From: Octopus sinensis
Taxonomy: Eukaryota
Reading direction: 5' to 3'
NCBI RefSeq assembly: GCF_006345805.1
Contig: NW_021831041.1
Span: 186,001 to 250,000, forward strand
DNA: 64,000 bases
Shown here: one piece after another, positions 4,866-41,900 of the stretch
Layout of the letters: every line of letters begins with the position of its first letter
Position numbering within the stretch: the stretch's first letter is position 1
The notes under the pieces: model-generated
Told to the model about the DNA's origin: nothing
Database searches by the model: none
Seen by the model: the letters and a program-made list of their open reading frames with translations, nothing else
Position numbers and translations under genes: made by a program

Positions 4866-5305
4866 ATGGCACGAACCAAACACACAGCACGTAAATCGTC
4901 AGGAGCCAAAGTACCCAGAAAACAACTCTCAGTCAAAACTGCCCGAAAAAGTGCAACTGCTTCCGCTGGACTGAAACGTCCTCGACGATTCCGCGCCGGA
5001 GCTCTGGCAATGAAGGAAATCCGCAGATACCAGAAGAGTACTGACCTTCTAATAAGAAAACTGCCCTTCCAACGTCTAGTAAGGGAAACAGCTCAGCACT
5101 ATAAAACCGACCTCCGATTCCAGAGTGCAGCTATTTGTGCATTACAGGTCAGAATGTCCATTTCATGTCTATTTAGGAGGCCAGTGAGGCATATTTGGTC
5201 AGTCTTTTCGAGGATACAAACATGTGTGCCATACACGGCAAGAGAGTGACGATCATGGTCTCGGACATCCAACTGGCCCGAAGAATTCGTGGCGAGAAGG
5301 CTTAA
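4866..5305 (+). CDS. H3: Divergent, intron-containing histone H3 variant (H3.3-like), 135 aa mature
   Basis: [21 protein letters not shown]... Removing a 29-nt GT-AG intron (5148-5176) after ALQ restores [42 protein letters not shown]. Confidence 0.95.
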
Positions 5306-7090: not shown

Positions 7091-8674
7091 TTTTTTGTAA
7101 CATTAAATCAATTTTTACTTGCATTCAAACTAAATGGGATTAACGCTAAAAAATTCTTTCTTTAAAATTTAATGTGGGGCTCCATGCAAGTTACACCAAT
7201 TTTAAACGTTAAATTTTGATCTTCATTTTCTGTCTATTCTGGTTAAAGGGTGTCTCATTACTAAGGGGTATCCAAGAGACAGACAGCCAATCTGAATTGA
7301 ACTCTGAATGAAAAAAGGATAAACGGCGATCTTTAATCCTCTGAGGGAATGGATATAGAATTAAGACAAACAGAAAAGAAAGAAAATAACTTGAATCAGG
7401 GGCAAGGAGTGGTGGAAAACAGCGCCTGGTTGATCAAGACTGAGAGGGATTTAGCCACAATGAGCCTGGCCAATTTTTGAATCTGGTCCCTTTGGAAAGC
7501 TGATAAGAGTTTAAGAAATACCAAAGGAGTAGGATAGCTGTCAGGAATTGAAAGTAAGCAGTTGAGTAACTAGAGTAAATTAATAATAAGGAACCTCGGA
7601 CACTTTCATAGCCGAGGCAAAAATCGGGAATTCTGTGAGTAATATAAACCAAAAAATGGCATTTGGCTACAATTACGTAATTAGGAACTTGTTTTTTTGC
7701 ATCCATTAGGACACTATTTAACTATTAAAAAAATATTGATTATTTGGCGACATAATGTGGTAAAATGTCAAATAATGTTTATATACGAAGACACAATGAA
7801 GTCGTATAATGTTTTCACCTTCATTTGTGTCGAATTTATAAAATCAAATATGAGAAAAAAATAAAAAACAAATGGTTCAGTAAAAATTGTCAACAGGAAA
7901 CGTTAAAATCCAGGTTGATATGGCAATTCCAACTGAAATCTAAGTACAATTCAACAAGCCAGATATGCACGACAAAATCAGCAACAATATAACTTTAATT
8001 GAATTATTATTTCACATGAAGACGTCACAGGCATGCTGGATAATGAACTCTCAAATACATATAATTCCATTAGTTATGAACGGAGTTGTAGGGGAATGCT
8101 TCAAAGATTATACTAGTGGTTTTTAACCTTTATTTTTGTATCGCCCCCTTGGAATTTTTTTCGCTCCTCAAATTTTTGTATCTCCCTCTTATTTCATTAG
8201 TAATAATATTACTATTAAGTAATTATAAAAAATATTTTTTATTTGAAAAATAAGATTTTTAATGAGATCCGATTTGAGTGCTGAATCCTCTCTCTGAATC
8301 CCTTTTAAGAATAAATAAGATTCAAACATTTCGAATATTGACAATCCTGTGGTATCCATGATTAACGATTTTTCAAATAATAAGTCTTCTTGCAAAATAA
8401 AATCATCATCGAAGTATCTTTATAAAATTTATTTATATTGATTCGTCAAGTTGGACTGAAAACTTGCGTTCTTTAAAAAGTGAAATTAAGAATTTTTCAA
8501 TTTCATTAGAAATTTTATCAATTCTCGTTCGCTGCTTAATGGAATAGTTTTCATAAATTTACTAAGAAATTGTTAAGGACAATGAGAAGAAGAACTGATG
8601 GCGATCCTGTTTCCCCTCACTATTGCTTGGGACACGTTTTCATAATATTTGAAAAATCTTTTTGTAAGATATTA

Positions 8675-10285
8675 TGTGACAGTCCGAATAAAAACACGCC
8701 CAAAGAAATGAAAGACTCCAACTTTGAATTGTCAATCGAGCGGCATGAGCGATACAGGCTCACAAAATTGGGAAAGAATTTCCATTTTGAAAATGGAAAA
8801 ACATATTTTCGAAAAAATGGGCTTAAATGCGTTTTTTCTGTGAAGATGAAATCGAATTAAAGCTTAAGTGCGTTGAGGTCCAACTTAATAAATAAAATTT
8901 AGGCGGAACATAACTATAACCACTTTGGGAGAGACCGGCTTTTTTCAAAATTAAGAAATCTCTATTATGGATTGAATAGAGAAGAAATCTCTAAGGTGAT
9001 TTCGAATTGTGCTTTCTGTCAGGTAATAACTCCTTTTAGTAAATATTCTTAGTCGAAAAAATTATTGTCTACGAAGCCTCCGATTACGCCAATCATGCAA
9101 GGAGATGTAGGGACAGATACATTGCGGATTTAATTGACCTCAGAAGATATTCGGCGTTGAATGATGGCTTTAGCTGGGTATGAATTTAATGTTAATAAAT
9201 AGATTTTGGTAATTGTGATTCTTTTTCCAAATATGTAATGCTTGAACTGTCGGTAACCAAATCTTCTGCAGAAATCGCAGATTTATTCCAAAGAATTTTT
9301 TATTATGTCGGGCCTCCGCTTATTCTACACACTGATAATGGAAAGGAATTTTGCAATTCGCTAATGGATGCTCTATATACGAAATATGGTATAAAACATG
9401 TACGTGGGAGGCCTCGTGCTCCTTGGGTACAAGGGCAAGTCGAAAGGTTAATGATTTAAAATCGATTTGTAGATTTAATCAAGCATAAAACGCTGGATAT
9501 CGTCGGCAAGTTCTTCTCAAAATTGTTTTGGACGATATCGCGAATGCATAAAGGACATCGTGTATGATTACAATAACAGCATTCATTCTTCGACAAAAAA
9601 AATCCCTTTTTATATATTCATGGGTGTTGAAAATCCTGGAAGGATTGATGAAGGGGGAATGGAGCAACTTTTAGCCTATGATTCAACTGGATTATCAGAG
9701 GCACGAGAAAGTGCATTAGAAAACTTAATTATTGCTGGCGAAAAAATGATTGAAAAAAGAAAATGGAGATACGACGAAGAAAATCAATGTCGGAACGACT
9801 GTGCTTTAAGGTCTCAAGCGTCAAATTAATTTTAGACAGGACAACGATGCCAATGTTCGGCAGTCTCCGCTGTACGATGGACTTGATGTTAATAAGTATA
9901 TTGTTGTCGAGCGAAGAAATGATCTCTATGTTATCGAAAAGGAGGACGGTGAGCGGTTACACGGATTCATATTTCTCGATTAGCTAAAATTGATTAATTT
10001 TCATAATCCATAATAAAAATAATTTTTTATTTAAATTAACGATAATTTTATATGAAATTTTATTAGGATAACCTAAAATGGAATAACCATATTCAAACGT
10101 ATAAGTTAACTGCGTAAATTGAGTGTGGTTGGTTTTGTTTATATAAATTAGTAAAAAAGGTTAATGAATTTTACATTAAAAATCATATTTTTAATAATAA
10201 TTAAACATTTTGTTGTGTAAATTTTTAATTTCAGTAAAATTAAAGAATGTAATTATTCGGCGTGTATTTTATTCGGACTGTGACA
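8675..10285 (+). mobile_element. Ginger2/TDD-type DNA transposon (gypsy-like integrase, SCAND3/KRBA2-like), with introns
   Basis: TIRs TGTGACAGTCCGAATAAAAACACGCC (8675-8700) and GGCGTGTATTTTATTCGGACTGTGACA (10259-10285), with TATTA on both sides. Spliced protein has HNYNHFGRDR...CAFCQ (HHCC), IADLID, HTDNGKEF and GRPRAPWVQGQVERFN (DDE). Confidence 0.88.
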
Positions 10286-10299
10286 TATTATTCTAACAA

Positions 10300-12505
10300 T
10301 TCCGTAGGAACATAAACAAAGTTATAATCCCACACGTGTCACAAGCGAAACAATCTTCTAGACCAGTGATTCTCAAGTGCGGCCCCCTGGGGCCGCATGC
10401 GCCCCTAGGATTAATTTGCGGCCCCTAGGTTTTATAAATGTTTTGTTTTTTAATTTATATTTTTAAATTTTATGAATAAAAAAATGTCACGTTTTTTATT
10501 TTGTTGTTGTGATGTGCTTGATTCTAAACGTTGTCGAAAACTTCCGAGGAAAATAGGATTTTTCACACATCTGGGAAGAAAAATGTTTCATTATTGAGAT
10601 CAATGGAAAGGCTCTTTGCCTAATATGCCATTCTATTATTGCAACTCTAAAAACGTATACAATCGAGCTTTAAAGAAGGTGCAAATTCAATGAGATTATT
10701 TGCATCTCCATTAATTATAAAAGTGAGGAGGTTTCCGATTTTACCAACTGGAATTGATTGATTTGCAAAATGATGTTGACTGAAAGTTTGTGTTCAACAA
10801 CATTTCAATAATTGACTTTTTATTCGAGAATTCCAGAGAACCGATTTCCGATTTAGTCAATAATGCAAAGAAAAATTTAGCAATTTTGGATCACATATGT
10901 CTGCGAATCGACATTTAGTAAACTCGTTCGAATTAAAACAAAGTTCGCAGCAGATTGACTGATACTCATCTGAGTGATTTGTTACGTACTTCAACAAGTA
11001 GAATAAACCTAATTTTGATTATTTGGTTAATAAATAATTCTTAAAAATATTTGCGCCCCTGTAAATTTTTTTTTTAATTGGCGGCCCCTGAGGAAAAAAG
11101 CTTGAGAATCACGTTTCTAGACCATCCTCGTCCATGCCCCTCTGTTGCGGGCGAGATCCCGCAAAGATTCTAGGTCGTCCCAGTTTTTGAAACTTTTGCC
11201 ATGAGGTTTGAGATCCCTTTCCAGAACTGCCGGAGAGTGGATCTAGGTCTCCCACGATATTTGTCTCCATGTTCGGAGAAATAATCGTCTATTGCCCGAT
11301 TGGCCGGAGCTCTGGGGTCCATTCGCAAAATATGGCCAAATAATTTCCACCGGCCTCCAACAATTTCTTGAGACAACGGCGTAGCATCGTAATGTTTATA
11401 CAGAGATAGATTGATGTTTATACAGAATGAGTATTCTGGCACGTTCCCTCTTCAGTGCCTGTTTGTTATTATGATCGTTCTCGTTTTCGATTCTGAGCTT
11501 TAGATCCTTTTGCTCAACGATTATCGCCCGAACATCCGGGTGGCACCATCTCCCAGACTGATTGTTATCTGGTTGCTTCCCGATGTGCTCGTCAGCAGCC
11601 GTATGGATACCATTCATAATGAATTCCCATGTGTTCTTCGAGGAGAGACCCGTTTCTATACAAGAGATATAGCTCTCCAATGGTTTTTGATAGTTTTTAC
11701 AAGTGAGGAAGAAGTGCAACAGTTTTTCCGTGAGATATCTTTTCCTTGTAGCAGATGGGAGTCTTCGCGCGTTGAGGGGCGCATGGTCTTTCTTGATGTT
11801 GAAACGTCCAACGACCATTTTGTGATCACTGTCAACCCGAGATCTCCCATATGATCTGGAGTCGAATAAGGCAGCCTTATCGGCCTGTCGACAAAGAATA
11901 TAATCGATTTGGTTGTAGATTGATGTAGGTTCACCGACCCCATTTGTTCTACTTCCAGTCCATGTGGTCCAATGTCGTGCAGCGTCGCAGAAAGCCGTGT
12001 TACACAAAAATAGTGAAAAGGTTTCACAGAGAGTCCCCGGAAGGTTCCTGTACCCACGGCCATATCTGCCAATAAATTGCTCGTCCCCAGAGCGGATGCC
12101 AAATTTGGCATTCCAATCCCCCGCGATGAATAGAATGGACGAATCCTGCAGACTTGTGAGTGTCCTAGCTAGCTCCTCGTAAAAGGAGTCTAGTTCGTCG
12201 AGATTCTTGGCAATCCTGCCACTTTGAGGGGCATAAACATTAATGATAGAAAGCATTCCGGATTTGTGTCCGGTACTTATTTGTAGTACAAATATTCGAT
12301 CGGTGACCCTCCAGCAGCGATGAATACAAGTAGATAAGTGTTTGTGTGCCACAAAGCCTTGGCCATAGTGCCCGCAAGTCGATTTAAGGCCTCTTACATT
12401 GAAAGACACAATAGATAGTTCGTATGATTGTTTTGCTTGTGTTATATCAGACATTGTGGAATAGAGGGTTGTCACCAGATATCGTTTATAAATAAATTTA
12501 AACAA
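10300..12505 (-). mobile_element. RTE-clade LINE with APE endonuclease; RT domain deleted; interrupted by hAT
   Basis: ORF 11396-12505 has SFNVRGL, INVYAPQ, IAGDWNAK, NQIDYIL and DSDH. It joins directly (~11430) to the RTE C-terminus RWKLFGHILRM...GRPR...LARNRGAW, whose tail continues past the hAT insertion. Confidence 0.8.
10364..11114 (+). mobile_element. Internally deleted hAT (Charlie/SPIN/GTF2IRD2-like) element, 751 bp
   Basis: TIR CAGTGATTCTCAA ... TTGAGAATCAC and exact 8-bp TSD TTCTAGAC (10356-10363 and 11115-11122). Remnants of the N-terminal zinc finger (ALCLICH) and C-terminal dimerisation region (QLELIDLQND, YVCESTFS, RLTDTHLSDLLR). Confidence 0.88.
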
Positions 12506-29301: not shown

Positions 29302-30609
29302 CACTCAACCCTCTCAAATTGGCCCCTCTCAAATTGGCCATTTTCAACTTGCACAAACTTGCATATTTAACGGATTTGTTAGAACATCAAGAAATATCCG
29401 TTTATAGTTCATATAAAAAACTCACATTAAAGGATGTTGTGATATTTGTTAAAATGGCATGGGAAGATGTATCGCAACATACCATTTTAAATAGTAAAGT
29501 TAATTTAATCAAGTGAAATCGACAAAAAAATCTAGCTATAATGTACTGGCTCGCAGGATTGAAAGACAATTCCCGCGTAAAATTGTTACGGAATTCTAAA
29601 TAATAATAACGTGAAAAATAATTCAGAAAATAGTATATCAATAGAAAGGACAGATATTTTTGATCCGTTGGATATTGAAGAATTTCTTGCATATGAATAT
29701 GCAGAAAATGATGCAATAGAAGAGATAGACAATTGCAAAAACATTGAAGATGAAAATATAAATGATGAGGAAGAAATTAACAAAAATGACATTTTGGTCA
29801 GGTTAACGACAATTGAAAAAGATTTATTAAAAAACATTGAAAACGAGAATGATGTCTTACTAATCTTAAGTTCTAGTTTTTCCTTCAGTTTGCAAATAAT
29901 CTTATCAAAAGAGTCCACTGGGTCTTTCTTAGTAGGGTTCCTCATAGTCAACTTCTCATAGGCCACTTGACCTGAATATATTATATCCGAGATTTCGTCA
30001 ATACAGGTCGGGGGATTAGTCGCTGTAAACTCAGCAACTACTTTTTTCACTCCAGAAATAATGCATTCATCCACGTATGAGTGTGGGAGCTTCTTCGTTG
30101 GCCTTCTCTCAGTCCGGTCCAACTCCTTCAAACAAATGGGAATTGAATTTTACTTTAAACAAATTAAGATTTTTTTAATTTTCTTTAAATTTAAAAAAAT
30201 TTATGCTAACTGAAGATAAATTAAAGTAATTTCTTTGAAAATTTATCGACTTTATTATCTAATTGGCCATTTCGAGTTGCTCTAAGAAAAATACGGCGCC
30301 TTATCGCACCGTTATATCTTCGCCCCGGTCGCATTGGAGACGTCGGGTGTCCTCGGTCCCAGGACTAAAAAATTTCTCATTAAATTGGGGAATCTGGCAA
30401 GCAGAAGGAAAAACGATCATCGAGAACGCACATGGCTTTTCCAACGCATATCAATAGCCATCTTGCGTGGGAATTGCCATTCCATCTTGTCCTCTGCCGA
30501 TAATTAGTTACACAAAAATAAACAATTCAAAGTAATATATTAAAACATTTCTCAAATTGGCCAACAAAATTGAAGGAACCAAAAATGGCCAATTTGAGAG
30601 GGTTAAGTG
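29302..30609 (+). mobile_element. pogo/Tigger non-autonomous element carrying nested retroelement fragments
   Basis: TIRs CACTCAACCCTCTCAAATTGGCC and GGCCAATTTGAGAGGGTTAAGTG, with TA on both sides. Tigger C-terminal remnant LTLKDVVIFVKMAWEDVSQHTILN. Confidence 0.8.
30300..30520 (+). mobile_element. 3' end of a CRE-like RLE non-LTR element
   Basis: ETSGVLGPRTKKFLIKLGNLA..RERTWLFQRISIAILRGNCHSIL*, a typical RLE-element C-terminus. Confidence 0.7.
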
Positions 30610-41249: not shown

Positions 41250-41900
41250 TCTTAGTTTAAAATCTGTAACGAATTTGAAGTGTCTGGCATAAAGATCACC
41301 CCTGTTCATAATTTGAATAATACCACCAACATCATCCATGCTGCACAGCTGACATACCAAGCTCTAATAAAATACTTTCCTAAGAATGACACCTGGAAAA
41401 AGGACATAAAAACAAAACCGAGTAAACTTATAGCACAGTACGAACCTTGGATTGAACGTGCTGAGAGAATTACAGAAGAACCGTTTGGCTGAGCAAATAA
41501 AGAAAAAACAATTGCATAATATTCTTTTCGATTGTTTAAATGATCCCAACGTTGATGTTGCTGAATCCTCTCATTGGTTATTACATAGAAATAACTCACC
41601 AAAAACCGAAGAGCTTCTGTGGCTCATAAAGGACCGTAATCTATTTTCCGAAAACGATGGAGCATTATGCAGTCATTGTAACTCAGCTAAAAAGACAGTT
41701 GATCCTTTAGCGACGAGGTGTGATCAGATGCTAACAGTGACTACTTATGAAGACACAACGACGTAGTGAAGTGCATACATCTGAATTTATACAGGAAGTA
41801 TAAAATTAAAAATCCAGAAGGTTGAAAACCCACTATGTTTAGTCAGTGGCTGCGACTAACTCTGTGGAGATTTGTGCTGGCACGACAATAAATACGGATG
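41250..41900 (+). mobile_element. R4/Dong-like RLE non-LTR remnant lacking the RT core
   Basis: IIHAAQLTYQ (N-terminal part, similar to IIYSGQVAYE at 29860-30131) joined to KDRNLF..CSHCNSAKKTVDPLATRCDQML..RHNDVVKCIHL (zinc knuckle preceding the RLE). Confidence 0.6.

Follow-up and report, generated by a model that had tools for sequence, protein, structure and literature searches.

The 64,000-nt window analysed here, the whole stretch of contig NW_021831041.1 presented above, contains genes for histone H3, an SLC4 transporter, a dynamin-family (mitofusin-like) GTPase, a mitochondrial carrier, a DHHC enzyme and a Ras-family protein. The histone H3 gene (4866-5303) is divergent and holds a 29-nt intron, read by eye, at 5148-5176. 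At 8675-10285 lies an integrase-encoding element with inverted ends. Its left neighbour, on the minus strand at 8115-8672, is a fragment that we take to belong to a hAT/Buster-like family (L211-L215), and ~75 bp to its right, at 10364-11000, is presumably a second, degenerate hAT-like element with a CAGTG end and zinc-finger-like fragments. Two further stretches, with ORF fragments at 29586-30149 and 41306-41766, resemble what we take to be microsporidian non-LTR retroelements; a search with ORF 41434-41766 returned one match only, which was not independent and adds no support.

The element begins with TGTGACAGTCCGAATAAAA at 8675, directly downstream of a TATTA at 8670-8674, and its right end reads TTTTATTCGGACTGTGACA followed by a second TATTA (10286-10290). 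The left end agrees with the reverse complement of the sequence up to 10285 at 18 of their first 19 nucleotides. The TGT...ACA terminal inverted repeats (TIRs) and TATTA target site duplication (TSD) reported in a first-pass annotation of this DNA are thus real. The right TIR is present in all of its 34 bp (10252-10285, minus strand; exact pattern match) and ends in the terminal ACA, whereas the left TIR is shortened to 26 nt of the family's 34 bp (8675-8700, plus strand). It stops at the junction (8700-8701) of a 171-bp deletion which, by pairwise alignment to the family copy L002, spans positions 28-198 of the 1,797-bp family master and takes with it the inner left TIR, the 5′ region, the start ATG and the first 14 codons. 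In other copies the alignment starts at query position 27, and the TIR lies ~200 bp beyond it. The element had been described as complete; it lacks these 171 bp, start codon included, and is frameshifted as assembled.

The remainder of the element, on the plus strand, consists of six exons and five short introns. The remnant of exon 1 (8701-8877) contains a second ATG at 8708 and a 1-nt deletion near 8827, and is followed by intron 1 (8878-8902, 25 nt, phase 0). Exon 2 (8903-9022) encodes the H2C2 motif, with the first His at 8909 and CxxC at 9008-9019; intron 2 (9023-9052, 30 nt, phase 0) carries an in-frame stop at its 3′ end. Exon 3 (9053-9177), with a 1-nt deletion near 9095, supplies the first catalytic Asp (9127-9129), and beyond intron 3 (9178-9202, 25 nt, phase 0) exon 4 (9203-9446) forms the integrase core, with the second Asp at 9334-9336, the Glu at 9442-9444 in a D-35-E spacing, and a 1-nt deletion near 9216. 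Intron 4 (9447-9472, 26 nt, phase 2) leads into exon 5 (9473-9810), which has small deletions near 9480, 9782 and 9804, and intron 5 (9811-9835, phase 2), 25 nt long here and 26 nt in the majority of the family, precedes exon 6 (9836-9997), which has a 1-nt deletion near 9964 and runs to the family stop codon at 9995-9997. All five GT-AG, AT-rich segments coincide exactly with the introns first proposed, including the last, whose position had been given as approximate.

Compared with the master, the window copy has 13 deletions of 1-3 nt (seven of them frame-breaking in exons) and nine substitutions, and 11 of the 13 small deletions fall in base runs. Several other copies likewise have 12-26 small deletions beside 1-6 substitutions. 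We infer that this excess of small deletions over substitutions is long-read error, and those of the window copy may be assembly errors; the 171-bp deletion probably is not. As assembled, the copy has neither the intact 5′ region nor the open transposase frame of an autonomous element. It is an ordinary damaged copy, and its value lies in the family series.

In L002, Integrase_H2C2 (PF17921, E 2e-6) matched exon 2 and rve (PF00665, E 9e-16) matched exon 4, both above the Pfam cut-off, which bears out the proposed HHCC and DDE integrase; the other four exons, exon 5 among them, gave no Pfam match above the cut-off. The spliced L002 model of ~405 aa contains HxxxxH...CxxC, D140, D201 and E237, the latter pair separated by 35 residues, and a pattern search of this model found neither a GPY/F nor a YPYY motif. 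The nearest structures are the foamy-virus and Ty3 integrases. As an independent intron test, our own spliced aligner was fed a profile of 11 outside proteins only. This profile placed all five introns in L002, in phases 0, 0, 0, 2 and 2, and on the window copy it recovered introns 1-4 and misplaced intron 5 because of a nearby frameshift. An A-run in exon 5 (window 9594-9602; L002:2401-2407) has 8 A in 12 of 28 matches, which leaves the frame open, and 7 A in 11 of the 28, including the two cleanest full copies, in which the frame ends at 304 aa. The difference may reflect an error of the assembly, a subfamily that is defective or a site of frameshifting, and among these 28 matches, with their 7-A and 8-A runs, no copy has a demonstrated fully open frame.

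A DNA search of G000, the assembly that contains the window, in which 40 of 260 candidates were scored, gave at least 81 matches. Among the 30 loci listed, 21 have both ends and 12 are longer than 1,750 bp, with a majority length of 1,797 bp. The genome-wide TIR search that the first-pass annotation had proposed found 49 exact occurrences of the 34-bp TIR and none of a reversed control, which implies ~25 or more copies. Exact, AT-rich 5-bp duplications flank 15 of the 21 TIR-bounded copies, or 14 of 20 distinct sites (two copies share a flank), a frequency beyond the chance rate of ~0.005 per site. Since 17 of the 21 copies are within 0-6 substitutions of L002, the burst was recent; two older copies have 38 and 53. 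Large internal deletions occur in 9 of the 20 other copies and in no case coincide with intron boundaries. The introns are kept in every copy, and as precise intron loss was found in none, movement was probably from DNA to DNA. An empty TATTA site was also sought for the window copy, to no avail: the left flank is a multi-copy hAT fragment, and none of five fetched copies runs on into the right flank. At L019, where TGTAATAAATCGAC ends lie ~2.9 kb apart around the copy, and at L053, a different inverted-repeat element with such ends encloses or breaks up copies of the family.

The initial assignment to Ginger2/TDD-type DNA transposons (Bao, Kapitonov and Jurka 2010, PMC2836005) is supported. 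The element has TGTNR termini (TGTGA and TGTCA) on its TIR, an H2C2 plus DDE core from which GPY/F and YPYY are absent, and a 5-bp AT-rich duplication; each 1,797-bp copy contains one gene between inverted ends, with no RT, gag or LTR. As described in that paper, Ginger2/TDD elements share the TGTNR ends, the H2C2 and DDE domains without GPY/F or YPYY, the AT-rich targets and the low copy number, and TDD-4 and TDD-5 share the 5-bp duplication, which is 4 bp in animal Ginger2 families. Our families are smaller, at 1.8-2.2 kb against 2.7-6.7 kb (Table 2 of PMC2836005), a published range that is descriptive rather than diagnostic, and the 34-bp TIR is shorter than the 45-297 bp given there. The element also has five introns of 25-30 nt, whereas the accessible portion of PMC2836005 lists introns for Ginger1 only. 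Anatomy and motifs fit except for size, and the KRBA2-like and SCAND3-like labels of relatives point to this group only indirectly; we file the element as one that works like Ginger2/TDD and is probably a member. Ginger1 is similar in its TGT ends, integrase-type transposase and 0-4 introns, one of them GT-TG, but has a 4-bp CCGG/CCGT duplication, GPY/F, YPYY and an OTU or Ulp1 tail (PMC2836005), none of which the element has. GingerRoot, as characterised in PMC6839031, is set apart by a 6-bp GC-rich duplication, mostly TA...TA ends and a 100-150-bp TIR, and the element has none of these. In the literature covered, with Repbase and most subscription journals outside its scope, we found no report of micro-introns in Ginger or dicyemid transposons, none of micro-intron gain in such elements and no description of this family.

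The organism that carries the family is probably not the octopus. Contigs C1-C30 of the 2.7-Gb assembly, which has chromosome-scale scaffolds, include four that were checked and are 15-213 Mb long; C1-C30 contain none of the 81 DNA matches, the 49 TIR matches or the 150 matches of a protein search in which 150 of 1,447 candidates were scored, so the family sits on small unplaced contigs, likely of a second organism within a large animal assembly, and genes annotated on those contigs would then be mislabelled. Aligned to the window at 43.5-63.4 kb, sequencing run X1 has nine gaps of 23-27 nt in host genes, 9/9 of them GT-AG. Our best guess, judged by intron size and by the labels of protein relatives, is a dicyemid-type parasite. 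Among animals, introns this short (<30 nt) are attributed in PMC13644364 to myxobolid myxozoans and dicyemids only; dicyemid introns have a median of 27 nt (PMC6543705), and the Dicyema genome is reported to have a GC content of 36.7% and 49% repeats (PMC6736024). Four database relatives of the integrase (P0001, P0011, P0019 and P0024) are labelled cephalopod, which helps the dicyemid guess; as they are probably not independent, they were omitted from the trees.

To place the introns among relatives, exon 4 was searched against G000, giving at least 150 matches at 48-100% identity. Gene models were built for 86 loci (10 that came from the DNA search, 16 of the 30 exon 4 loci listed and 60 hand-picked from the other matches across the range), which fall into 28 groups at 80% identity, so the genome holds at least 28. 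Beyond the window family, 18 related loci have TGT ends and an exact 5- or 6-bp duplication. Introns were counted with a rebuilt profile at seven sites that recur or are well supported and that have support in their flanks; many long introns called in the first spliced-alignment pass were false and came from poorly aligned flanks. Numbered by amino acid, the five introns of the window copy occupy sites 75, 115, 157, 238 and 352, which are present in 18, 17, 23, 21 and 5 families, respectively. Two more sites, 136 (phase 2) and 193 (phase 1), occur in two families and in one (L073 only). Counting one intron per family and site, 87 introns from 25 families have a median length of 26 nt and range from 16 to 35 nt, the 16-nt case being probably an alignment error. 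The claim that the introns are host-sized is therefore upheld, as this median does not differ from that of host introns (25 nt, n=10; p=0.22).

The four old sites (75, 115, 157 and 238) are common to families that are only ~50-79% identical over the core, and all of their introns are host-sized. Across families, introns at the same site are hardly more alike (0.36) than introns at different sites (0.35), which indicates that length and ends were kept while the sequence turned over. Long co-residence with the host, as first suggested, agrees with both the shared sites and the divergence of intron sequences close to background. Families with 0, 1, 3-4 and 5 introns coexist in this one genome, and five contigs (C12467, C12603, C12459, C8460 and C1794) carry both intron-poor families and intron-rich copies. 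L110, L111 and L118 each consist of one uninterrupted reading frame (468, 471 and 399 aa, respectively). Site 115 is cleanly absent from L071/L078 and from L077, inside the intron-rich clade, either through exact removal of the intron from a DNA transposon or because these groups split off before it was gained. L073, L071 and L079 read through site 352; L066, which is sister to the clade with that site, breaks off there. What looked like absences in L085, L104, L055 and L097 were sites that have mutated or are non-canonical, and not losses.

A careful tree was built from 56 rows and 246 columns (LG+G4), with 25 distant, partial or redundant rows excluded. Metagenome integrases, 10 of 80 of which served as outgroups of a quick tree only, do not enter it; the metagenome scan gave only distant integrases, mostly 24-37% identical, and the protein atlas only generic integrase clusters. 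The nearest independently named relatives are integrases of the microsporidia Dictyocoela muelleri, Nosema granulosis and Cucumispora dikerogammari, labelled KRBA2-like, SCAND3-like or Pol. They are 46-53% identical to the element over exon 4, have the HTDNGxEF and RxPWxQGQVER motifs in common with it, and read straight through its intron sites. A look-up of names for 10 unnamed relatives yielded nothing useful. In the tree, the intron-rich families and four unnamed proteins (P0002, P0003, P0025 and P0036) form one clade (100/96), within which the five families with site 352, the window's among them, are nested (100/84). The two site-136 families (100/93) are sister to the intronless L118 (100/94), and these three together with L110 lie amid the Dictyocoela, Nosema granulosis and Cucumispora proteins (97/95); three G000 lineages are placed among microsporidian integrases in this way, and the window's family belongs to a separate clade. 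Approximately unbiased (AU) tests, with constraints chosen after the first quick tree had been viewed, rejected a single clade of all G000 rows (p 5e-5), of all intron-bearing rows (p 3e-7) and of the microsporidian rows (p 9e-55). Taken at face value, this topology suggests several lineages and exchange between microsporidia and the host, in either direction; ancient duplication with patchy sampling may account for the same pattern.

Parsimony scores sites 136, 193 and 352 as gains and leaves sites 75, 115, 157 and 238 unpolarised. For the first three, gain in the host appears likelier than shrinkage on the present tree, because they occur in nested subclades only and because intronless and one-intron families group with microsporidian integrases. 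Some cautions apply to this reading: parsimony can mislead, as the absence of site 115 from two groups within the intron-rich clade illustrates; protein databases favour intronless genes; and P0002, P0003, P0025 and P0036, which sit with the intron-rich clade, may come from either DNA or RNA. The comparison of intron positions with other taxa, which had been proposed as a check, covered microsporidian proteins, which read through the sites; among the relatives retrieved, and hence in the tree, no named Ginger2 or TDD sequence was found.

We therefore favour, at a probability of roughly two in three, the interpretation that the window holds a 5′-deleted, likely non-autonomous copy of a young 1.8-kb Ginger2/TDD-like family with five host-sized micro-introns, at least one of which (and two more in sister families) was likely gained in the host lineage. 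Under this interpretation, several integrase-transposon lineages, some shared with microsporidia, would have entered intron-poor and gained introns over time, and only introns of 22-35 nt would persist, because the host would splice best at that size. The host spliceosome would remove the element's introns, and the transposase of intact copies would bind the inverted ends, cut beside the terminal CA and insert with a 5-bp stagger. The window copy itself could move only in trans, provided that its shortened left end is still recognised.

An alternative, which we consider unlikely, is that these are old Ginger2 introns, once long, that shrank with those of the host and were lost from the intron-poor relatives; the first-pass annotation had spoken in this sense of introns converging on the host's size. 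Four of the sites are older than the radiation of 20 or more families, site 115 is missing from two nested groups, myxozoan host introns are reported to have shrunk at conserved positions (PMC13644364), and CACTA transposases mostly lose introns (PMC4158355), all of which would suit shrinkage. However, no relative with a long intron was found at any site, and sites 136, 193 and 352, nested among relatives that do not have them, would each require several separate losses on the tree. The integrase domains of KRBA2 and SCAND3, which are Ginger2-derived, are single exons (PMC3575427), as are the single open frames of L110, L111 and L118. CACTA and mariner-like transposases resemble the present families in that intron sites are conserved across families, but their introns are of normal plant size and loss prevails, whereas here introns of 22-35 nt at nested sites point to gain (PMC4158355).

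Whether the introns do more than get spliced bears on a further possibility, that they are kept as a switch through which inefficient or stage-specific splicing limits the transposase, as in the P element. If intron 1, 2, 3 or 4 is kept, the product is cut short at 79, 123, 157 or 241 aa, so the full protein needs splicing, and two families have unusual splice sites: at site 75, a 28-29-nt GT...TG segment is found in 7/7 copies of a young family (L055, L056, L057, L058, L068, L069 and L081) whose sister families have a GT-AG intron there, which points either to an acceptor outside the canonical type or to mobilisation of the family in trans, and at site 238 a 27-nt GC-AG intron is found in four of five copies of another (L097, L099, L106 and L121), with GT-AG in L127. 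When the element is divided into 30 bins, run X1, whose type is unrecorded but which behaves as RNA, covers 17. A single X1 contig of 238 nt (depth 2.3) matches L002 without mismatch and leaves out precisely the 26 nt of intron 5; three others extend into or across intron 4 in unspliced form, and none bridges introns 1-3, where missing cover is no evidence. The RNA check that had been proposed for the introns thus supports intron 5 in one contig, while intron 4 is kept in three. These unspliced contigs are rearranged or divergent, however, and may come from dead copies or DNA; in their size and ends the element's introns resemble the host's ordinary ones, and the genome still contains intronless families that have TIRs and duplications. 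We regard a regulatory switch as quite improbable. Control by splicing, a barrier to transfer and intron loss that eases transfer have already been proposed for other transposons (PMC4158355), and a MULE with three introns moved between grasses (PMC1310652). That the element is an LTR-retrotransposon fragment or a domesticated host gene with coincidental ends is already refuted, for while its protein is similar to the integrases of retroviruses and of Ty3, and some database entries are named "Gag-Pol" or "Pro-Pol", its ends are inverted rather than the direct repeats of Ty3/Gypsy elements, 1,797 bp is too small for gag or RT, introns are retained in every copy where such retrotransposons have intron-free ones, and 20 distinct flanks with exact duplications are joined by the 18 further TGT-ended loci with 5-6-bp duplications.

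Returning to the favoured reading of intron gain in the host, a broader version of it can be put forward tentatively, at odds that we place somewhat below even: that integrase transposons moved repeatedly between microsporidia and a parasite with micro-introns, gained 22-35-nt introns stepwise, and that the intron-rich lineage was thereby locked into hosts able to splice introns of this kind. If true, the genome would hold a dated series of micro-intron birth and act as a one-way trap for mobile DNA. Microsporidia are reported hyperparasites of dicyemids (PMC4150386), and Ginger elements are listed, on the basis of the rve domain, for the microsporidian Anncaliia (PMC5751038); within the literature scope given above, no paper was found that mentions "Ginger2" and "microsporidia" together. 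How new spliceosomal introns originate, and whether the very short ones start out short or have shrunk, is the larger question to which these elements speak. Nested gains in 28 or more groups make it testable, because intronless arrival provides a known starting state, and the family series would serve the study of how very small introns arise. The tree also points to transposon exchange with microsporidia. The match in intron size is what the biology of the host would lead one to expect; what is new, and testable, is the nested series of introns and the link to microsporidia, which stand on one assembly and thin RNA support.

Small introns are not particular to the integrase element. In the neighbouring hAT family, three of five copies contain a candidate intron of 25 nt and all five contain one of 18 or 31 nt, which argues that small intron size is a host-wide rule. 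The 31-nt form of the latter candidate holds a tandem 13-bp repeat.
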